Part shown: piece by piece, positions 12,327-21,089 of the stretch | Layout of the letters: every line of letters begins with the position of its first letter | Position numbering within the stretch: position 1 is the stretch's first letter | From: Promethearchaeota archaeon | GTDB taxonomy: Archaea; Asgardarchaeota; Lokiarchaeia; Sigyniarchaeales; SOKP01 | Direction of reading: 5' to 3' | Length of the DNA: 50,363 nucleotides | NCBI GenBank assembly: GCA_018238625.1 | Contig: JABCSY010000018.1 | Location: 1-50,363, forward strand | Notes under the pieces: model-generated | What the model saw: the letters and a program-made list of their open reading frames with translations, nothing else | Told to the model about the DNA's origin: nothing | Database searches by the model: none | Translations under genes and position numbers: made by a program

Positions 12327-13367
12327 CTATTTATCGATTATCATTTTATCTTGAACTTGATCGGTCAGTAAAATTCTTAAGTAACTTTTATCGTTTTTGA
12401 AATTTACTTCTTCTAATTTACCATTAACTAGCACATTTTCACCATTGATTGCTTGTTCGCAAAATCTTCCTCTAAACGAGTTAATTTCAATAAGAGCTTT
12501 TAAGTCTACGTCTCTGCAATTAATATTACTTTCTAAAACTTTTAAAAGCTCTATTTTATAAGAACAAGGAGTAAAAATTGAATTGGTTGATTCAATAACT
12601 TTTGCTTTTATTTTTATCCGCCCTAAGTTCTTAAATTTGTAATCGTAATAAGTTCCTTTCCAAGCTTCGGGACTTTTAATATATCTTATAAAAAAATCGA
12701 TTCCATGAAATTTTCCTTGGTGTAACTTTCTTTTTTCGCTTTTTAAAAACTCTTCGAAGTTAATATCAGACCCTCCGACTCTCCATTTATAATGAGTTTT
12801 ATATTCCTCTAAATTATACATACTACAATTGTTTGAAGCTTGAAAAATATTTTTTAATTTATCTTGAAATTCTAAACTAACTTGAGTACCATAAATGACT
12901 ATATCAATATCTGAGCTTTTTTTGTCTAATCCAATCATAGGAGACCCCGATATCCCAATAGAATTTTCTGGAATATCACCTTTATCAATTAAAAGTTCAC
13001 ATAGATTTTTAGACTGAATTTCTGTTTCTATTAAATCATTTTTATCTTTAAGCTTTTTAAAATAGGCTCTAGGGGTGTAAATTTGTTTTATATCTTCTAA
13101 TTTTACTCCTTGAAGTTCTAAATCAAAATTTTTCGAAAAGAATAGATGTTGAGGATAATGCTCTCTTAATTTTGAGTATCTCTCATCGAGCGAATAGATT
13201 TTTTTAAATTTAATGTCATCCTTTATTCTATCTCCATTTTGATCAGGATAAAATCTTAAAAAACAAATCTTACGATCATTAGGGTGATGAATACCTTTTA
13301 TATCAAAAAATAGATGGTTTTGTTTTGTTTCAAGGTAATCTCCTTCAATTCCTTTTGGAATTTTCAT
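12327..13367 (-). CDS. archaeal predicted nucleotidyltransferase
   Basis: IGISGS…SSDIDIVIYG polymerase-beta-type motif; N-terminal FDIKGIHHP…FLRFYP. Confidence 0.8.
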   Translation of the reverse strand: MKIPKGIEGDYLETKQNHLFFDIKGIHHPNDRKICFLRFYPDQNGDRIKDDIKFKKIYSLDERYSKLREHYPQHLFFSKNFDLELQGVKLEDIKQIYTPRAYFKKLKDKNDLIETEIQSKNLCELLIDKGDIPENSIGISGSPMIGLDKKSSDIDIVIYGTQVSLEFQDKLKNIFQASNNCSMYNLEEYKTHYKWRVGGSDINFEEFLKSEKRKLHQGKFHGIDFFIRYIKSPEAWKGTYYDYKFKNLGRIKIKAKVIESTNSIFTPCSYKIELLKVLESNINCRDVDLKALIEINSFRGRFCEQAINGENVLVNGKLEEVNFKNDKSYLRILLTDQVQDKMIIDK

Positions 13368-13387: not shown

Positions 13388-14470
13388 TTAATATTTTGAA
13401 GGGGTTTTTGATTTGATTTTATATTTTGGAATCTCTTTTATTTTTCTTAACTCTCTTTCAAAATCGCGCTTTTCTCTGAGAAATCTCTCTTTATCGCTTT
13501 TTAATTTTTCTCTTTCTCTTCTAATTGCCTGCTTTTCATTCTGTATCGTCGATTTTTCTTTTTCCAATTGTTTAGATTCATTTTTTAATTTTTTAAGTTT
13601 ATTCTCTAAATTACGAATTTTATGTTCTAAAGAATAAAAAGTATCTTCTGCTTTAGGAACTTTTCTTTCTAATTCCTTCAATCTTGCTTCTTGACCTTTT
13701 TTCTTTCTTTCTAATTCTCTTACGTCACGATCTGCATTCTCTTTATACTTGCTTAATCCTTCTTTTTTTTTATCAACTTCACGAGATTGAAGATTTAAAT
13801 CTTTTTTTTTATAGCGAACTTTTTCTTTTTCATCTTTTAATTTTCTTTTCTCATCTTCAATTCGATTTTTTTCATCTATTATTTCTCTTCTCAAACTATT
13901 GGTTTCTTTGGTTAGATTATCTCTTTCTCTCGTTAAATTCTTAATTTCATTTCTCAAATCCATTAATGTGTTTTCCAAATTTTCAATAGTTCTTTCTAAC
14001 GCATTTTCTCTCCGTTCCATACCGGGTATTTTAGTTTTAATTTCCTTAATTCTATCTTTTGCTCTTTCTTTATCTTTTTCTAAATATTTTTTCTCACTCT
14101 CTATCTCGTCTTTTAATCCTTGTAGTTTCTCTTGATATCGTTCTAAGTTAGCATTTTTTTGATCTAGATTATCTCTACTTTGCTTTATTTCATTTCTCAT
14201 AGTTTCTAATTCATTTTTTAATTTTCCATGTTTATTTTGTAGGTCTCTCACTTGAAGTTCTTTTTCTTTTCTTTTCTTTTCTAAATCTTCAATATTTTCG
14301 TTGTATCCTTCAAATCTTTTAATAACCTGTTCCCATTCGTTTTTCTCTTTGTTCAATTTAGCTGTTTCTTCCTTAATTTTTTTGAGTAATTTAGCATCTG
14401 GAATTACATCTAATTGCTCTTCAGGTGTTTTTTCTCGAATTTGATATTTAGGAATGTGTTTATCGTTCAT
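13388..14470 (-). CDS. long coiled-coil protein with matching N- and C-terminal motifs
   Basis: About 310 aa of E/K/R/L-rich heptads; IPKYQIREKTP at the N-terminus and IPKYKIKSKTP at the C-terminus. Confidence 0.85.
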   Translation of the reverse strand: MNDKHIPKYQIREKTPEEQLDVIPDAKLLKKIKEETAKLNKEKNEWEQVIKRFEGYNENIEDLEKKRKEKELQVRDLQNKHGKLKNELETMRNEIKQSRDNLDQKNANLERYQEKLQGLKDEIESEKKYLEKDKERAKDRIKEIKTKIPGMERRENALERTIENLENTLMDLRNEIKNLTRERDNLTKETNSLRREIIDEKNRIEDEKRKLKDEKEKVRYKKKDLNLQSREVDKKKEGLSKYKENADRDVRELERKKKGQEARLKELERKVPKAEDTFYSLEHKIRNLENKLKKLKNESKQLEKEKSTIQNEKQAIRREREKLKSDKERFLREKRDFERELRKIKEIPKYKIKSKTPSKY

Positions 14471-14643: not shown

Positions 14644-15021
14644 ATGGATTTTGAGGAAGATTTTAACGAGGAACTTGACGAAGACTTAGATGAAGAATTA
14701 GAGGAACCTTCTACAAAGGCCCCCACGGAAGAAGTTGCAGTTAAAACTCCAGATCAAAAAATCTCACAAGAAGGAAAAAAGATTTCAGTGTATTTTCTAT
14801 CAACCATAGGACCTGGTGAGAAAAAACAAAAATTACTTGTTTTCACGGGCAATCTGGTGGGAGATATCAAGGAGACTGTAGCAAATTTGTTTGCTTTAGA
14901 TCCTGCAGATTTTCATTTATCTTCGGGCGGCGTAACCATGGATGAGGATAACCAGTTAAGTGATTATAATGTGGTTGATGGAGATGATATATTACTAATT
15001 CCAGCTAGCGTAGCTGGTTGA
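14644..15021 (+). CDS. ubiquitin-like protein A (acidic N-tail, C-terminus …IPASVAG)
   Basis: Beta-grasp pattern: VGDIKETV helix, FHLSSGGVTMDEDNQLSDYNVVDGDDILLI resembles ubiquitin [30 protein letters not shown]; adjacent to E1/E2. Confidence 0.85.
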   Translation: MDFEEDFNEELDEDLDEELEEPSTKAPTEEVAVKTPDQKISQEGKKISVYFLSTIGPGEKKQKLLVFTGNLVGDIKETVANLFALDPADFHLSSGGVTMDEDNQLSDYNVVDGDDILLIPASVAG

Positions 15022-15073
15022 ATAAATTGGAAAGATAGAGACAATTTAGTAATATTTTTTTCATTTTTCACTT

Positions 15074-15862
15074 CTATTTTTTTCTTGATGGAATTAGCGC
15101 AATTTCGTCATCATCGTCAATAGCATAATCTTTTATTAGAAGAGTTTCATCTAATAAAATCCCCCCAGATGATAATAGAAAACCTTCTAGATTATAATCA
15201 AATAATATTCCAACTTTTTCTTTTATGACACTTACTAATTCAGACGTTTCAATTATGAGAATCTTAGTTTTCTCACCTGGTTCGACTAATGACCTTATAT
15301 AAACACGTACTTTCTCATCCATCCCAATAGTTTGCAATGGTGGGTTGTATATCACTTGTTCCTCAGTTAAGCTCTTGGTTTCTAACATGTCTTCAATTAA
15401 CTGTTTTCTCTCACCGGCATCAAAATACAACATTTCCCTAATAAAAAATATTTTGTCCATTTTTGATAATCCTAAGAGATCAATTTTAGCTATTTCTTCT
15501 TTATTAAAAATAGTAAAAATATAATCATCCATCGATTCTATTTCCTCGAATGATTCCACTGCATTGGCATAATTATCAATTAAAGGCATTGCATCAAAAT
15601 AATCCTCAAGTAGAGCACTAGTTTTTTTCTTACTCAGTTTTTGCTTAGGAAAAGATTTAATATCTTTCATCTTCACATTGGGGGTATTTTTAGATTGAAC
15701 AACTGTGTAGATAGTGCTTGTGGATAGCACAGCAACACTACCAATTGTTAAAAAGAGATATATTGGAACATTTTCTACTTGTAAAAAGATAAGAATCAAA
15801 TAAACAAATGCTATCCCTACGTAAAGAGTTATGAGACTTAAGACTCTAAAATTCTTCCTCAT
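15074..15862 (-). CDS. two-TM membrane protein with C-terminal ubiquitin-like domain
   Basis: Two N-terminal hydrophobic helices; last ~80 aa align with the two free Ubls (PGEK, IKE, LSSGG, DE, KDY, LIP) but end SRKK. Confidence 0.85.
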   Translation of the reverse strand: MRKNFRVLSLITLYVGIAFVYLILIFLQVENVPIYLFLTIGSVAVLSTSTIYTVVQSKNTPNVKMKDIKSFPKQKLSKKKTSALLEDYFDAMPLIDNYANAVESFEEIESMDDYIFTIFNKEEIAKIDLLGLSKMDKIFFIREMLYFDAGERKQLIEDMLETKSLTEEQVIYNPPLQTIGMDEKVRVYIRSLVEPGEKTKILIIETSELVSVIKEKVGILFDYNLEGFLLSSGGILLDETLLIKDYAIDDDDEIALIPSRKK

Positions 15863-15946
15863 GATTTTTATGATAAATTTTATTCAAATTTCTAATATAT
15901 AATTCAAAATATAAATCCCATTGGAATAAGTTTGAAATTTTGATGC

Positions 15947-16618
15947 TCACTCACCTAAAATTGATTCTCTTATCTTATAGTATTTCTCTGCATTGATTTT
16001 AAAAGAAACCTTTTTATTTTCTTTTTCGATTGTTACTAAATCCAGATTTTTTAATATTTCAAGATACTTTTTTATCGTATTATAATTCTTTTTTAATCCA
16101 GTTGAAATTTCAGTACCCTTTAATGTTTTATTTTCTTTAATCATAAAATCAATTATTTCTTGTACAATATTTCGTTTTAAATAAAAAAATAACATATCGT
16201 ATTCTGGATTTGAATCGTATTCAAAGATTATTTTTTGATTGCCAATTTTTTTTGATCTAGTAAATCTAAATTTTTCAAGGCAGGATAAATGCCATAGTGT
16301 TTGATTGCTTCCAATATTAATGGCTTTCATTATTTCATTAATATTTGATGGATTCTTTCTAATATAGTTATAGATCTCGTTTCTAATGGGGTGCTCTATA
16401 ATATTGTTTTTCATTAATTTTGTTCCAGGAACTAAAATTCTTTTTTTAATTAGATTTTTAATTATAAGTTCAATACTATTTTTATTTAGATAAGGGTTAG
16501 ATTTTACTCTATTATTGATAAATACAACAATATCTTCTATTGAAAAGAAAGGTTTCTTTTTCAAATATTCCCCTATTAAATCACAAACAATAGATTGAAG
16601 GTTATCCGGAGAGCTCAT
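15947..16618 (-). CDS. multi-domain winged helix-turn-helix regulator
   Basis: RNEIYNYIRKNP…WHLSCLEKF and EISTGLKKNYNTIKKYLEILKNLDLV wHTH repeats. Confidence 0.8.
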   Translation of the reverse strand: MSSPDNLQSIVCDLIGEYLKKKPFFSIEDIVVFINNRVKSNPYLNKNSIELIIKNLIKKRILVPGTKLMKNNIIEHPIRNEIYNYIRKNPSNINEIMKAINIGSNQTLWHLSCLEKFRFTRSKKIGNQKIIFEYDSNPEYDMLFFYLKRNIVQEIIDFMIKENKTLKGTEISTGLKKNYNTIKKYLEILKNLDLVTIEKENKKVSFKINAEKYYKIRESILGE

Positions 16619-16886
16619 AGGCTTATATTTTTACTATGTTAAAAGGTCTGAACTTATTAATCAAATCTTCTTTCTAAACAGTATTCTCACCAATAAATAT
16701 TAATAAATTGTCATTCAATTTATAAATATATGTTCTTAGGAACTCTAATTAATATATTATTTCGTTTTCTTTTTAAAATTAATAAAACTTCAAAATCATT
16801 CCAATGGGTTTTTTAATATCATTTTAACATCATATTATTAAATTCTTAAAAAAAAATAAATTAAAAAAATAGATAAAGTGATTTGA

Positions 16887-17222
16887 ATGAGTTTTGAAGA
16901 CGATTTTGATGAAGAATTAGAACCAGTTAAATCTAAAACTCCATCAACAAGTAAAACACCCTCAACAGGCAAGAAGTTGACTCTATATTTCATGTCAACT
17001 ATTGGTCCTGGTGAAAAGAAGGAAAAGTTAACGGTGAACGACGCTAATAATGTAAGTGACATCAAACAAACATTAGGAAATTTATATGGACTTGATCCTG
17101 AAGAATTTCATCTTTCCTCTGGAGGAAGAACAATGGATGAGGATAGTCAATTAAAAGATTATAGTGTTAGCGACGGCGACGATATACTTTTAATTCCAGC
17201 AAGTACTGCTGGATACTTTTAA
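16887..17222 (+). CDS. ubiquitin-like protein B, pro-form (C-terminus …IPASTAG-YF)
   Basis: About 70% identical to Ubl A over the 82-aa core; first gene before E1; GTGA upstream of the ATG. Confidence 0.88.
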   Translation: MSFEDDFDEELEPVKSKTPSTSKTPSTGKKLTLYFMSTIGPGEKKEKLTVNDANNVSDIKQTLGNLYGLDPEEFHLSSGGRTMDEDSQLKDYSVSDGDDILLIPASTAGYF

Positions 17223-17248
17223 ATATTTCTTTTCATAAAATTTAATAT

Positions 17249-17282
17249 AAGGGCATTAAGCCCTTCAATTTTTTTATTTTTT
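17249..17282 (+). terminator. hairpin plus T-tract between Ubl B and E1
   Basis: aagggc-attaa-gccctt followed by aatttttttatttttt. Confidence 0.55.
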
Positions 17283-17300
17283 CAATTAATAATAATAATA

Positions 17301-18551
17301 GTGATAATATTGGATAAGGAATCAGATTTTTTTGCCAAAGGAATGACAGTGGAAGAGAGAGATTTGTATGATCGCCAATTTCGTTTGGAAGGATGGTCTC
17401 AGAATTTGGTAAAAGACTCAAGAGTGTTAATTGTAGGCATTGGTGGGTTAGGTTGCGAAATTGCTAAAAACCTAGCCATGTTAGGTGTGGGCCATTTAGA
17501 TCTTGTTGATTTAGACATTATTGAGCATTCCAATTTGAATCGCCAACTTCTTTTTGTTGATGCAAAGTTAGGAGAACCAAAAGCTATTGTGGCGGCTAAT
17601 AAGCTAATCAAGATTAATCCTAATGTTACTGTAAAAGGATATCATACTTCCTTAGAAAGGTTAGATCCTGCTTTATATCATGCAGCTGATGTTGTTATTG
17701 GAGGTCTTGATTCAATGAATGCTCGTTTGAACCTAAATGCGCAATGTATAAGATTTAGAAAACCATTAGTGGATGGAGGTACATCTGGTTATCACGGACA
17801 TATGTATTCAATCTTTCCGTATCGGAATGCTTGTTATGAATGTAATCCACTACCAGTAGGAGAGAGTGATGAAATGGCGGCTTGTACAGTGGTAGGTATC
17901 CCCCGAAAACGGATTCATTGTGTTTTTAAAGGAGATATGGCGTTTAAAGAAAAATTTGATAGAGATCTGAACCCAAAAAATATAAAAGATATTGAATTTA
18001 TCCAAAAAGTCGCAAATGAATTAGTGAATAAGCATAATTTCCTACCAGAATATACTTCTGATGATATAGTTAAAATCATTGATCGTCATGATCCTGGGAT
18101 CATTACTATTAATGCAGTTATTTCTGCTTTAGAATCACATGAAGCTGTGAAAATCTTGCATTGGAAAAGAGGTCATAAGAGTTTAGGACGGCCCATTTCA
18201 AGTTATGTTATATTTAACGGAATGACAATGAAACTGTATCATATTGAAAAGAAGAGAAATCCGGAATGTTCTCAATGTGGTAAAAATGTAAGGCGTGTTG
18301 CTATAAAAATGAAAGCTCAATCACCCTGTATGAATATAATTAGAACATTGCAAAAAAATGGATATGAATTAGATCCTGAATTTGAACCAGTTGTTACCTT
18401 ACAGGATTTCAATGATATCATGGTTTTAGATTTAGAGCAAAATGTAAGCGAAAATGGTTTAAGAAATTACGAATTTCTAACCGTTGTGGGTTTTAAGGGT
18501 GGAGATATTTATGTTACATTAAAATTAAAACAAAAATTAAATCAAAAATGA
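17301..18551 (+). CDS. ubiquitin-like activating enzyme E1 (Uba2/Uba3-like)
   Basis: LYDRQ, VGIGGLGCE, DLDIIEHSNLNRQLLF, GLDS…AR, CYEC and CSQC zinc ligands, catalytic Cys in ACT…P…HCV. Confidence 0.95.
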   Translation: MIILDKESDFFAKGMTVEERDLYDRQFRLEGWSQNLVKDSRVLIVGIGGLGCEIAKNLAMLGVGHLDLVDLDIIEHSNLNRQLLFVDAKLGEPKAIVAANKLIKINPNVTVKGYHTSLERLDPALYHAADVVIGGLDSMNARLNLNAQCIRFRKPLVDGGTSGYHGHMYSIFPYRNACYECNPLPVGESDEMAACTVVGIPRKRIHCVFKGDMAFKEKFDRDLNPKNIKDIEFIQKVANELVNKHNFLPEYTSDDIVKIIDRHDPGIITINAVISALESHEAVKILHWKRGHKSLGRPISSYVIFNGMTMKLYHIEKKRNPECSQCGKNVRRVAIKMKAQSPCMNIIRTLQKNGYELDPEFEPVVTLQDFNDIMVLDLEQNVSENGLRNYEFLTVVGFKGGDIYVTLKLKQKLNQK

Positions 18552-18615
18552 TTTTTGAGAAAAATCTATTAAATAAAAAGTATAAAAAAAAAGTATAAAA
18601 AAAAGGGTTGAGAAA

Positions 18616-19143
18616 ATGAGTATAAGAACCAGTCGTGTTTCCCGAGATTTTGCGGGATTAAAAAAATTGCTTAAACAAGGTACTATTATCCAATTAAAAC
18701 CATTTAATCCGAAAAAAAAGAGTATTGATCATTTAGCAATCACAATTAAAGGTCCTAAAGGTACAGCTTATGCAGGGGGATTGTTTAAGTTAGAAATGAG
18801 ATTCCCTGCTCAGTATCCTAAGCAACCTCCTTTCGTAAGATTGCATACTCCAATTTGGCATCCAAATTTTTGGGCAAAACCAAGTGAATACAAAGGACAG
18901 AGAAATATTTGCTTAGCTTTAGTAGATCCTTCTTTAACGGGTAAAAAAGGAGGATGGAGTCCTTCAAAAACAGCAAATACTGTTGTTCAAGCAATAATTG
19001 CCATGTTAAACACCCATGGTAAATATGTTAATCCCACTGATGTTTTTAATAAAAAGGCAGCTATAGAAATGATGAAAGATCCGAAATTTTTTGATAAGAA
19101 AGTAAAAGCGTTAACAAAGAAGTATTGCAAGGATAAATGGTGA
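18616..19143 (+). CDS. ubiquitin-conjugating enzyme E2 (UBC fold)
   Basis: GPKGTAYAGGLF, FPAQYPKQPP, IWHPN, ICL catalytic Cys, WSPS. Confidence 0.95.
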   Translation: MSIRTSRVSRDFAGLKKLLKQGTIIQLKPFNPKKKSIDHLAITIKGPKGTAYAGGLFKLEMRFPAQYPKQPPFVRLHTPIWHPNFWAKPSEYKGQRNICLALVDPSLTGKKGGWSPSKTANTVVQAIIAMLNTHGKYVNPTDVFNKKAAIEMMKDPKFFDKKVKALTKKYCKDKW

Positions 19144-19150
19144 ATTAATA

Positions 19151-19939
19151 ATGAATAGTGATGATAATGCGCTCAGAGATGCAATAAAAAAGAAAATTAA
19201 GGAAAAAATTAAAAAGGAATTACTTGAAGAAGTATATACCGAATTACAACTTGAAGAATTGCAGGAAGAATTAACCACTGAAATTATTAGAGCAAAGCCT
19301 TTAGTGCATTCAAAAGAATTTAAAGCCAATCTTGAGCCAATTCCTATGGAACCAATCAAAACTGTAGCTAAAAATGATAAAGTTGAAGTATCTATGACTA
19401 TAAAATCTATCCTTAAGATCGCTAGCCATTCATTAAAATATGCACATTCTAAAATGCGAAGAGAGAATTGGGTTGAAGTAATAGGGTTGCTTGCTGGAAA
19501 ATACGACAATAGAAAAGGAATTCTTCATGTTGAAGATGCGTATCCGATGGGGCATGGTACAGCAGTTTATGCTGAAATCAAAGATTATAAAAATTATGTT
19601 AGAGCCTACAATGATATAAAAAAAAATAATCTGTCTATTTGTGGATGGTATCATTCTCATCCTTCTTATGGATGTTTTATGTCGCGAGAAGACTTAGGAA
19701 CTCAAGCAAGATATCAAAAATTATGGGATAAAGCTATTGCGCTTGTTATAGACCCATATCAGATTAACGGGAAATCTTTAGGTTTTGAAATTTATCGTGC
19801 TAATTTTAAAACAAAAAAATGGTTTTCAATTCCATTTGATATTAAGGGGCATTTAGATGTGAGAATGTTACCAGAAATTTTAGAATTTATAAATCCTATT
19901 ATTGAAGGAAAACCAGTTTATTTAGAATATGATGAATAA
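19151..19939 (+). CDS. JAB/MPN+ metallo-isopeptidase (Rpn11/CSN5-like)
   Basis: EVIGLL plus GWYHSHPSYGCFMSREDLGTQ JAMM motif; ALVIDP. Confidence 0.95.
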   Translation: MNSDDNALRDAIKKKIKEKIKKELLEEVYTELQLEELQEELTTEIIRAKPLVHSKEFKANLEPIPMEPIKTVAKNDKVEVSMTIKSILKIASHSLKYAHSKMRRENWVEVIGLLAGKYDNRKGILHVEDAYPMGHGTAVYAEIKDYKNYVRAYNDIKKNNLSICGWYHSHPSYGCFMSREDLGTQARYQKLWDKAIALVIDPYQINGKSLGFEIYRANFKTKKWFSIPFDIKGHLDVRMLPEILEFINPIIEGKPVYLEYDE

Positions 19940-19970
19940 TAATGAATAGTTTTAAGGTGAAAATTAAACT

Positions 19971-21089
19971 ATGGTAAAAAAAAAAGTGTTAAGGATAATA
20001 GCTATTTTTTTCCTAATAATTGGCTTAACTCATGGTTTAATCTCATATTCTTTAACTATTTTTTTTACTTGGTTATTAATCGGATTATGGATCATATTTA
20101 CAATAAGGATTTTTGAAAATATCAAGCACCACCGTGAGTATAATTCACCGCATAATACTGCATTTTTTGTAATTCTCCCATTATTTATCGGGATTTTTTA
20201 CTCCATATGGGGGTCTTTTACGGGTATATTGGGAGAAAGTCTTATTGATGGCGTGTATTTTAGTTTTTGGAGTCTAATTTTTGCTTTTCCATTCGTAATG
20301 TATGGTTTATATTCTTTATATCGTTGTTTTAAGAAATATAATATAATCTATTTTGGAAAAAAATCAGTAAAAGCAAGGGCGTTGGGATATATTCTATCAA
20401 TCTCAGTTCTTATTTTTATTATTACCTATTGGATAACTTTGTATAGTTTTATTGAATTTCCTCCAGTAGACTTAAATCTCCTATTACTTTTCATAGCTAT
20501 AGTTTTAATATTAATTGTTTTTGGATTTACATCTAATACTGGTTCATCAATACCAACATTAACTCGGGATTACATTGCCGAACGTACTAGAAGGATCAAT
20601 AATTTGACCACACCTTCAACCCAGAGACAAAGAGTACGCACAACACGCACAACTAATACATCTCCATCAACTAGAACAACTACACGTACAACAAGATCTA
20701 GAACTCAATCGTCAAGAACAACTCCTACATCACATAGACAAACGGCAAGGACTAGAACAACAAATACTACTAGTGTTAAACCAACTTTAAAAGTTCGTGA
20801 TCTAAATAAATATAAACCAAGAGCATCATATCTTACAGTAGATGATTTCAAATGTATATTTTGTTTTAATTTACCAAAACTTCCTGGAGATAGAGGAAGA
20901 GGAATTGTTGTATGCCCAAATTGTAGATATCCCGCGCATGCTGATGAATTTAAAGATTGGATGCGAACTTCAAACCTCTGTTCACGTTGTAGTGCTACTA
21001 TACCATCAAGTTTTAGGCGTAATCCTAGAATTATATCTGTAAAAAATTATATGATAATCTATCGACATTTTTTAAAGAAGAAAAGATAA
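19971..21089 (+). CDS. polytopic membrane protein with Thr/Arg-rich linker and C-terminal RING-variant finger (putative E3)
   Basis: About 6 hydrophobic segments; CIFC-x16-CPNC-x4-H-x2-E-x3-W…CSRC; last gene of the E1-E2-JAB run. Confidence 0.75.
   Translation: MVKKKVLRIIAIFFLIIGLTHGLISYSLTIFFTWLLIGLWIIFTIRIFENIKHHREYNSPHNTAFFVILPLFIGIFYSIWGSFTGILGESLIDGVYFSFWSLIFAFPFVMYGLYSLYRCFKKYNIIYFGKKSVKARALGYILSISVLIFIITYWITLYSFIEFPPVDLNLLLLFIAIVLILIVFGFTSNTGSSIPTLTRDYIAERTRRINNLTTPSTQRQRVRTTRTTNTSPSTRTTTRTTRSRTQSSRTTPTSHRQTARTRTTNTTSVKPTLKVRDLNKYKPRASYLTVDDFKCIFCFNLPKLPGDRGRGIVVCPNCRYPAHADEFKDWMRTSNLCSRCSATIPSSFRRNPRIISVKNYMIIYRHFLKKKR

Follow-up and report, generated by a model that had tools for sequence, protein, structure and literature searches.

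A Loki-type Asgard gene cluster predicted to encode a ubiquitin-type conjugation system with Ala-Gly tags and a putative membrane ligase

Asgard ubiquitin systems serve the reconstruction of how eukaryotic protein tagging originated, and the versions that have been studied biochemically all use a ubiquitin ending in Gly-Gly and a small soluble RING protein. In Caldiarchaeum subterraneum, two studies describe an operon for a pro-ubiquitin, an E2-like protein, an E1-like protein and a small RING finger protein (srfp), together with an Rpn11-like JAMM protease, and they report that Rpn11-type trimming after Gly-Gly, loading of the E1 and E2, and stimulation by the RING protein were demonstrated (PMC5654768, PMC6043591). 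A helarchaeial Gly-Gly cascade has been reconstituted, according to a preprint (bioRxiv 10.1101/2023.07.25.550441), and the same preprint, with a genomic survey, places the classical Asgard Gly-Gly clusters (Hel-, Odin- and Heimdall-type) next to ESCRT genes (PMC9192718, bioRxiv 10.1101/2023.07.25.550441). Here we describe a gene cluster at positions 14644-21089 of a 50,363-nt stretch of DNA, referred to as the window, from contig JABCSY010000018.1 of a Promethearchaeota archaeon (GCA_018238625.1). Its genes probably make up a ubiquitin-type conjugation system of Loki-type Asgard archaea that is both complete and dedicated, and that is predicted to be a diverged sister of the classical Asgard/Caldiarchaeum Gly-Gly operon. 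The cluster is already catalogued, because the Asgard catalogues in the genomic survey count it as a Lokiarchaeal "Ub region" (PMC9192718).

Like the Caldiarchaeum operon, the window's locus brings the same five functions together in one compact cluster, with a beta-grasp tag (Foldseek TM 0.82-0.86 to the CsUb structures 6fj7, 6fnn and 6fno), a single-domain E1, a UBC-fold E2 and a JAMM protease predicted to be able to trim precursor tails. In contrast to that operon, the tags of the window end in Ala-Gly and carry a conserved N-terminal arm with acidic and K-x-K-T-P motifs, most tag copies have no precursor tail, and the predicted E3 is a 372-aa protein instead of a small soluble one, with its RING-like domain placed behind about six predicted membrane helices and a long linker, and with a Glu at the sixth ligand position. 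The JAB gene is moreover co-directional inside the operon, and there are additional genes for a second tag, an anchored ubiquitin-like (Ubl) protein, a winged-helix protein and a coiled-coil protein. Four of these departures affect how the cluster can work: the Ala-Gly end, the tag arm, the membrane ligase and, in one family, the anchored Ubl. None of the four was found described in the literature consulted, although the cluster may appear in the first Lokiarchaeum paper, in the supplements to it or in those to PMC9192718. The kind of cascade and the catalogue entry are already known, and the four departures seem to be undescribed.

A conserved gene set for predicted ubiquitin-type conjugation

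An earlier note on this DNA had listed eight open reading frames (ORFs) in the cluster, and the ORF list confirmed the coordinates and strands of all of them (Table 1). The note had also proposed that they form a self-contained Ubl/E1/E2/E3-like/JAB set with intact catalytic motifs in the E1, E2 and JAB proteins. The domain assignments bore this out, and the expected residues were present: Cys195 of the E1 (codon 17883) and Cys99 of the E2 (codon 18910) lie at the codons named for them, and the JAB protein has an intact H-x-H-x7-S-x2-D motif. Successive genes of the core operon (UblB, E1, E2, JAB and membrane protein) are separated by 78, 64, 7 and 31 nt.

The E1 has one adenylation domain, and zinc-type Cys pairs at residues 178/181 and 323/326, and its C-terminal region could represent a ubiquitin-fold domain. 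Among solved structures its best relatives were SAE2/UBA2 (2.1e-38), UBA1 (~1e-35) and UBA3 (1.6e-34), and UBA5 was matched at only ~7e-14. Its candidate catalytic residue, Cys195, aligns with the Cys of the SAE2 stretch ...GCTIRNTPSEPIHC..., a eukaryote-type segment whose Cys we take to be the catalytic one of SAE2. The E2 carries an HPN motif; both this motif and Cys99 align with UBE2R2, and the Cys is in register with other E2s as well. The JAB protein, whose gene starts 8 nt past the end of the E2 gene, reads H-S-H-P-x7-S-x2-D and gave a Prok-JAB match of 26.2 bits; its probable role is that of a tail-trimming and deconjugating enzyme.

Searching the species genomes with the E2 as query returned 169 relatives, and the best 80 loci were analysed. 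The E2 is 81-94% identical across these best 80 of the 169 related loci, all of which come from Asgard metagenome-assembled genomes labelled Promethearchaeota or Lokiarchaeota, bar one contig labelled as bacterial. This contig (L016, DATKTW010000176.1) is assigned to a Nanopelagicaceae bacterium yet carries the archaeal cluster with an E2 91% identical to that of the window, and the assignment is probably a binning or labelling error. Gene order, on whose conservation the earlier note had made its reading depend, is kept: 55 of the 80 loci have the full set of eight genes arranged and oriented as in the window (52 exactly, and three with one gene split into two ORF calls), so the arrangement is far beyond chance. 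Another 21 loci are truncated where the contig or the extracted stretch stops, and the remaining four (L054, L065, L070 and L078) hold the core operon without adjacent UblA, anchored-Ubl and winged-helix genes. Because these four loci keep the core without its adjacent accessory genes, the cluster can be divided into a core operon (Ubl, E1, E2, JAB and membrane protein) and an accessory module that is separable from it.

The core operon was also present in all five loci examined from other families (f7, f28, f15, f13 and f16), and the accessory module was found in none of these five. In one distant locus (L103), a distance of ~1.6 kb separates the genes for the E2, JAB and membrane proteins from those for the Ubl and the E1. 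The JAB gene is within the operon in every locus, close or distant, that extends to it. Over the phylum as a whole the tag is widespread, with the Ubl detected in 194 of 400 genomes; a profile of the RING domain was detected in 210 of the 400, a count that includes weak matches (~E 1e-6) in families without the Ubl, possibly to other RING proteins. The tallies of Ubl and RING domain run in parallel from family to family: 119 versus 115 of 134 genomes in the window's own family (f1), 25 versus 30 of 31 in f13, 19 versus 19 of 22 in f16, and 8 versus 8 of 14 in f3. Within the window's family, genus g2 had the Ala-Gly Ubl in one of its five genomes and the RING domain in none of the five. One member of the Ubl family (P0099) bears a source name from the first Loki-type marine-sediment metagenome.

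Ubiquitin-family tags with an invariant Ala-Gly end

UblA ends in ...IPASVAG-stop, UblB in ...IPASTAG-YF-stop, and the anchored Ubl in ...IPSRKK. The PF00240 match of UblB is above the Pfam cut-off and those of UblA and the anchored Ubl are weak, and with 70% (UblA domain) and 41% (anchored Ubl domain) identity to the UblB domain, the view that the locus encodes three paralogous Ubl domains was upheld. The Ala-Gly terminus reported for the modifiers is real and invariant in the family. It was found in 59 of 59 UblA orthologues, 47 of which end exactly there, and in 73 of 73 UblB orthologues, of which 50 end at Ala-Gly and 23 carry tails. Together with the Ubl ORFs of distant loci (8/8), this makes 140 of 140 tags, 132 from close loci and 8 from distant ones. 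The tails beyond Ala-Gly in UblA and UblB orthologues are 1-7 residues long and unrelated in sequence, and they look like disposable extensions and not like a conserved propeptide. Neither an Ala-Gly nor a Gly-Gly terminus was found in any of the 61 anchored-Ubl orthologues, and this protein, having no terminal Gly, is predicted to be non-conjugatable.

The acidic parts of the modifiers, which had been described as tails, turned out to be N-terminal arms, reading MDFEEDFNEELDEDLDEELEE... and MSFEDDFDEELE... in the two tags. Every tag member has an acidic [FL]-D-E-[ED]-[LF] segment in this arm, repeated several times in UblA, and between the acidic segment and the fold there are one or two K-T-P motifs, typically K-S-K-T-P, in distant members as well. 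The long arm of UblA has acidic FDEE repeats and a KTP motif, and the arm of UblB combines FDEEL with KSKTPSTSKTP.

An AlphaFold model of the UblB domain showed a beta-grasp fold (predicted local distance difference test, pLDDT, 89.5), for which the best Foldseek matches were NEDD8, Caldiarchaeum ubiquitin and ubiquitin (TM 0.82-0.87). When the family profile was compared with the Protein Data Bank, the matches, of which 60 were listed out of 410 at E <= 10, included ubiquitin, a Bacteroides ubiquitin-like protein, Caldiarchaeum ubiquitin and the UBL domains of ubiquilins. The Ala-Gly pair aligns position for position with Gly75-Gly76 of ubiquitin, and the final Lys or Arg of the tag is far upstream of this pair. 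The suggestion that the tags might form an undescribed class of archaeal modifier is not supported by these comparisons, in which both profile and predicted fold point to ubiquitin, NEDD8 and Caldiarchaeum ubiquitin; on this evidence the tags are best described as members of the ubiquitin family that have a fixed change of Gly to Ala and an additional arm. In one distant genome (G307), a 585-aa protein with a HerA-like P-loop ATPase region (HerA_C, DUF87) carries a C-terminal Ubl domain of this family ending in ...SSRAG (L101, 11075-12829, minus strand). The fusion gene adjoins the core operon and looks like a cargo-fused tag.

The relation to the classical Asgard systems can be followed in a single genome, G067, which carries an Ala-Gly cluster (L104) and a classical cluster (L108) ~90 kb apart. 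Because both coexist there, the two kinds of cluster are paralogous. L108 encodes a ubiquitin ending in ...RTTGG-FPN (PF00240, 56 bits), an E1 of 342 residues, a small RING protein (111 aa) and an E2 of 170 residues; the E2s of the two clusters are 32% identical over 120 residues and their Ubl domains 24%. Ubiquitin, E1, E2 and RING are homologous between the two types, with Ala-Gly aligned to Gly-Gly, but L108 differs in having a small soluble RING protein, an armless Gly-Gly ubiquitin and neighbouring small-GTPase-like genes. By our reading of its sequence, two small-GTPase P-loop-like ORFs and one RecA/KaiC-like ORF are interleaved with the genes of L108 (76-10369). Unlike the classical ESCRT-linked clusters, the window has no ESCRT gene, and Cdc48, Derlin and proteasome genes were likewise found nowhere within its 50 kb.

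These comparisons bear on the simplest alternative, namely that the locus is the canonical Asgard ubiquitin system, in which Ala-Gly is a neutral variant, the membrane domain an incidental fusion, and no separate pathway exists. Such a view accommodates the homology of all parts to those of the classical operon, the position-for-position alignment of Ala-Gly with Gly-Gly, and the treatment of the locus as a Lokiarchaeal Ub region in the survey (PMC9192718). Neutral drift, however, does not predict an Ala-Gly end that is invariant in 140 of 140 tags from several families. In addition, G067 keeps both types with different ubiquitin, E1, E2 and RING genes, the tags have a conserved N-terminal arm that the classical ubiquitin of L108 does not have, and the membrane fusion is kept in five of five distant loci. 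We therefore regard a merely canonical system as unlikely, and favour a dedicated one that is a diverged sister of the Gly-Gly operon.

The window's own genome also encodes a second E1 (531 aa) and a second E2 on contig C185. This second E2, a paralogue 38% identical to the E2 of the locus, was detected at E <= 1e-40 in families f1-f7 only, and is present in all five genomes of genus g2 and in G135, where the Ala-Gly Ubl was mostly not, or not, found. By sequence there would thus be at least three E2-based systems in the phylum, among which the Ala-Gly cluster behaves as an independent unit. The separate pathway postulated by the earlier note is supported by comparative evidence only, that is, by the distinct Gly-Gly cluster of G067 and by the second E1/E2 pair and a Ubl ending in QAGG in the window's own genome. 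That Ubl is a stand-alone ubiquitin-family ORF of 84 aa on contig C7 (33232-33423, minus strand) ending in ...MATQAGG (PF00240, 38.6 bits); a ThiF-like gene lies ~8 kb from it, and this Ubl may work with the second E1/E2 pair or in sulfur-carrier metabolism. The second E1/E2 pair itself was located at C185 19703-24359 and C91 7604-8221, and also in L106. In several genomes, and in both copies in the window's genome, the match to the second E2 stops near residue 139 or has in-frame stops; the cause may be an insertion, splitting of the gene, or heterogeneity of the assembly or of strains. Near-identical gene segments are shared by C91 43-3040 and C185 21903-23487, consistent with strain heterogeneity or a duplication.

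Two predicted membrane proteins and a proposed pathway

Membrane segments were predicted with a Kyte-Doolittle scan (window 19, threshold 1.6). The last protein of the operon showed hydrophobic stretches at residues 1-49, 61-87, 91-113 and 132-194, amounting to about six predicted helices in residues 1-194. The anchored Ubl protein is laid out as a hydrophobic region (residues 4-55) with two predicted N-terminal membrane helices, a middle region and a Ubl domain (residues 194-256, PF00240). Both are thus predicted membrane proteins by hydropathy, in line with the earlier claim that the putative E3 and one Ubl are membrane-bound. In both, the linker that follows the hydrophobic helices is rich in Lys or Arg (that of the last protein is rich in Ser, Thr and Arg) and the positive-inside rule would accordingly put both the Ubl domain and the zinc domain on the cytoplasmic side.

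Conservation in the last protein is highest over its final 95 residues, which contain a zinc domain of the form C-x2-C-x16-C-x2-C-x4-H-x2-E-x3-W-x6-C-x2-C. Written out in the sequence of the window, the consensus is C-x2-C-x16-C-P-x-C-x-Y-P-A-H-A-D-E-F-x-D-W-x6-C-S-R-C, and its Cys, His and Trp residues are invariant or nearly so in 49 sequences. The conserved Trp presumably sits where RING-H2 and RING-CH domains have their E2-contacting Trp. Hydrophobic segments at the N-terminus and this zinc motif at the C-terminus recur in all five distant homologues. In an hhalign comparison with the 111-residue small RING protein of L108, the domain aligned over 55 columns with Cys and His in register (probability 94.5%, E 7.8e-8); the L108 protein itself matches zf-RING_2 at 25.3 bits, just under the cut-off, and has His at the sixth ligand position, where the membrane protein has Glu. 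This profile comparison argues for homology between the RING-like domain and the small RING E3 of the classical Asgard Gly-Gly operons, and it is stronger evidence than the structural matches. For a model of the zinc domain (pLDDT 77.6), nearly all entries in the Foldseek list were E3 domains of the RING or U-box kind or else RING-like modules from larger complexes, with a best E of 1.2e-2, so that structural support for a RING fold is moderate. Among the 120 homologues listed, none had a precomputed Pfam domain and those with a source name were called hypothetical; surveys based on domains would therefore miss the membrane ligase.

We propose the following pathway, in which the parts are read from sequence and every activity is predicted. 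UblA would be made ready for use, ending at Ala-Gly, and the YF tail of UblB would have to be cut off, a task that most likely falls to the operon's own JAB protease. The E1, a single-domain enzyme that is probably homodimeric, would adenylate the terminal Gly and take the tag over as a thioester on Cys195, from which it would pass to Cys99 of the E2. The last protein would sit in the membrane and hold its RING-like domain in the cytoplasm on a long flexible Ser/Thr/Arg-rich linker. There it would bind the charged E2 and direct the tagging of lysines on membrane or membrane-proximal proteins, a modification that the JAB protease would reverse. Two accessory components, whose genes occur in the window's family only, would also act: the anchored Ubl, probably as a membrane docking site for tag-recognising proteins, and the tandem winged-helix protein, probably as regulator of the two divergent transcription units.

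The HRD1 complex of endoplasmic-reticulum-associated degradation (ERAD) pairs the polytopic Hrd1, with its C-terminal cytoplasmic RING, with Usa1/Herp, which has a two-helix hairpin and a non-conjugatable Ubl. The combination of a polytopic RING protein with a hairpin-Ubl protein is alike in architecture. The domain order of the Ubl protein is, however, reversed with respect to Herp, and the window has a tag, an E1 and an E2 of its own. The membrane parts of the cluster match no Pfam family above cut-off; the likeness is one of domain architecture. The comparison with ERAD and UFMylation drawn in the earlier note holds as an architectural analogy only, and, a single C-terminal Gly apart, the UFM1-system features that were examined were absent.

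A second comparison concerns the tag arms and a Lys/Glu-rich coiled-coil protein encoded next to the cluster. The coiled-coil gene is syntenic in 57 of the 80 loci and lies directly beside the Ubl gene in the distant loci L100 and L101. The protein has conserved motifs at both ends, found also in L100, with IPKYQIREKTP at the N-terminus and IPKYKIKSKTPSKY at the C-terminus (IPKY-x-I-x-x-KTP), and a K-x-K-T-P core is common to these ends and to the N-terminal arms of the tags. The conserved arm motifs and their recurrence on the coiled-coil protein suggest a shared docking or acceptor site, and make this protein a candidate partner or substrate whose membership of the system is putative. SUMO-2/3 arms carry a SUMO consensus site. 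The likeness to SUMO lies in a flexible arm with a short Lys motif that recurs in a candidate target, and in an E1 whose best relative is SAE2 (2.1e-38); unlike in SUMO, the scores of the E1 against UBA1 and UBA3 are almost as good, and the tag fold finds NEDD8 and ubiquitin first. By analogy, K-x-K-T-P might serve as a SUMO-like acceptor site, an acceptor role that is putative. The motif is short and its cases are few, so that its meaning rests on conservation and not on statistics.

Taken further, these features might describe a dedicated membrane tagging pathway running parallel to Gly-Gly ubiquitin. The RING ligase and the anchored Ubl would work as a pair like Hrd1 and Usa1/Herp, the Ala-Gly tag would be placed on membrane or cortical proteins, and the K-x-K-T-P acceptor or docking motif in the tag arm and the coiled-coil protein would allow SUMO-like, motif-directed tagging and chains. 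The system would then be a prokaryotic counterpart, possibly a forerunner, of ERAD-like ligases. We put this extended picture forward as speculative and rather doubtful. If the system acts at the membrane, ubiquitin-type control of membrane proteins would predate eukaryotes. The cluster is of real interest for the origin of membrane-associated ubiquitylation. With five proteins it is small and testable, and relatives of these archaea are in culture.

Several points weigh against our interpretation. The activity, thioesters, conjugates, substrates and localisation of the cluster members are predicted ones, the membrane helices come from a simple hydropathy script, and the topology follows from the positive-inside rule. 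Neither the last protein nor the anchored Ubl belongs to a Pfam family above cut-off, the 18.9-bit match of the latter lying below it. For the zinc domain, Foldseek gave no match to solved structures at E <= 0.001, and the best VIA Z of 7.8, to RING/U-box entries, is in a range that can reflect a common arrangement only. There are seven clear zinc ligands and not eight; the remaining position is mostly Glu and is Ala in the distant homologue L100, which makes the second zinc site uncertain. K[ST]KTP occurs six times in ORFs of at least 80 aa genome-wide, where ~2.6 are expected, numbers too small for a meaningful test. Finally, RNA support comes from contigs of relatives, which cannot show a transcript of this locus and into which DNA may have been carried over, so that the hint of expression is weak.

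A different origin for a membrane-associated single-Gly system would be an archaeal forerunner of the UFM1 pathway. The membrane association of the predicted ligase fits such a forerunner, as does the end of the tag, where one terminal Gly follows a small hydrophobic residue, although a single C-terminal Gly also occurs in several modifiers unrelated to each other and has no diagnostic value. Nine Asgard clades have been reported to contain Ufm1 homologues, with no proteins named in the main text (PMC12962969). The genome has, besides, a UFL1-like open frame of 790 aa on contig C193 (19294-20007, plus strand; L089, L090; PF09743, 63.5 bits). The components of the locus itself speak otherwise: the tags match ubiquitin and not Ufm1 in Pfam, UFM1 appeared neither among the 60 profile matches listed of 410 nor in the Foldseek listing down to rank 50, the E2 is an HPN-bearing protein of the UQ_con family, UBA2, UBA1 and UBA3 are much nearer relatives of the E1 than UBA5 is, and the protease is a JAMM enzyme and not a Cys protease. 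In the genome, PF03671 gave only noise (E 0.16) and PF08694 (UFC1) no match. We therefore rejected a UFM1 forerunner as very improbable, the modifier, E2 and E1 all being without the features of that system.

Gene list, surroundings and expression

Table 1. Genes of the cluster and its immediate left-hand neighbours, with positions in the window (bits, Pfam scores).
Gene or product	Position	Strand	Description	Basis
Nucleotidyltransferase-like gene	12327-13367	-	Syntenic with the cluster in 51/80 loci	Weak DUF4269 and Polbeta matches only
Lys/Glu-rich coiled-coil protein	13388..14470	-	360 aa	Below-cut-off coiled-coil-type Pfam matches
UblA	14644..15021	+	125 aa; free ubiquitin-family modifier; end ...PASVAG	ORF; PF00240, 19.2 bits
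Anchored Ubl protein	15074..15862	-	262 aa; N-terminal hydrophobic hairpin, C-terminal Ubl; end ...IPSRKK	PF00240, 18.9 bits; hydropathy
Tandem winged-helix (ArsR/HrcA-type) protein	15947..16618	-	223 aa	HTH_5, HrcA_DNA-bdg
UblB	16887..17222	+	111 aa; first gene of core operon; end ...PASTAG-YF	PF00240, 31.6 bits
E1 activating enzyme	17301..18551	+	416 aa	ThiF, 191.4 bits
E2 conjugating enzyme	18616..19143	+	175 aa	UQ_con, 91.6 bits
JAB/MPN+ (JAMM) metalloprotease	19151..19939	+	262 aa	JAB PF01398, 55.5 bits
Putative membrane E3	19971..21089	+	372 aa	Hydropathy; RING-like zinc domain

The source assembly is 4.29 Mb in size with ~30% G+C and an estimated contamination of 7.59%, and the window is its contig C50. 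The winged-helix protein matched HrcA_DNA-bdg (E 8e-07) and HTH_5 (E 2.1e-06) in Pfam and, below cut-off, ArsR/SdpR-type NCBIfam models, and it has paralogues elsewhere in the genome. Its gene, placed upstream of the anchored Ubl gene and read in the same direction, is divergent from the core operon and is syntenic in close loci only and not in distant ones; the product is probably a transcription regulator.

Upstream of the cluster lie an FtsZ-family gene and genes for a TPR protein, sugar dehydrogenases and a transporter, and downstream a gene for an MptA-type GTP cyclohydrolase and a row of genes for biosynthesis of the pterin/F420 type. Of the flanking genes, several are syntenic in 51-66 of the 80 loci, among them those for a FolE2-type GTP cyclohydrolase (62/80), an amidohydrolase (66/80) and a RibD_C protein (63/80), and the flanks are housekeeping genes. 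This setting bears on the possibility that the locus serves in defence against viruses, like bacterial systems of the Bil/CBASS-Cap2 kind, by tagging the proteins of invaders. Bil comprises a Ubl, an E1, an E2 and a JAB protein, and the component set of the window is the same. PADLOC returned partial and weak 'E1-E2' matches to the E1 (at most 56.8 bits, adenylation domain only) and a weak one to the JAB protein (18.8 bits), and NCBIfam 6A-MBL cap2_3 matches were far below cut-off. In contrast, the Ubls, the E2 and the membrane protein had no PADLOC match, and the locus is single-copy and highly conserved (E2 81-94%), with a fixed housekeeping neighbourhood (flanks kept in 62-66 of the 80 loci) instead of a variable island. 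The fixed context and the PADLOC results together argue against a mobile defence island, and identity as a defence system, which we consider highly improbable, was rejected.

Finally, a sulfur-carrier system of the ThiS/MoaD type with MoeB/ThiF, in which the tag would not be a protein modifier, agrees with the E1 matches to MoeB/ThiF NCBIfam models, all of which are below their cut-offs, but is the least credible alternative in view of the dedicated E2 with its active-site Cys, the RING-like protein, the JAB protease, a tag that matches the ubiquitin family and not ThiS/MoaD, and the eukaryote-type Cys segment of the E1.

In metatranscriptome X19, contigs 90-99% alike to the window cover the winged-helix gene and the E1, E2 and JAB genes, and one of them spans the junction between the E2 and JAB genes (18714-19259). 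UblA, most of the anchored Ubl gene and the gene for the membrane ligase were left uncovered in X19, which is no evidence of their silence. Among DNA data, 16 sequencing runs from seven studies hold at least a third of the sampled words of the stretch, and 11 of them at least half; most of the 16 are from marine or cold-seep sediment.

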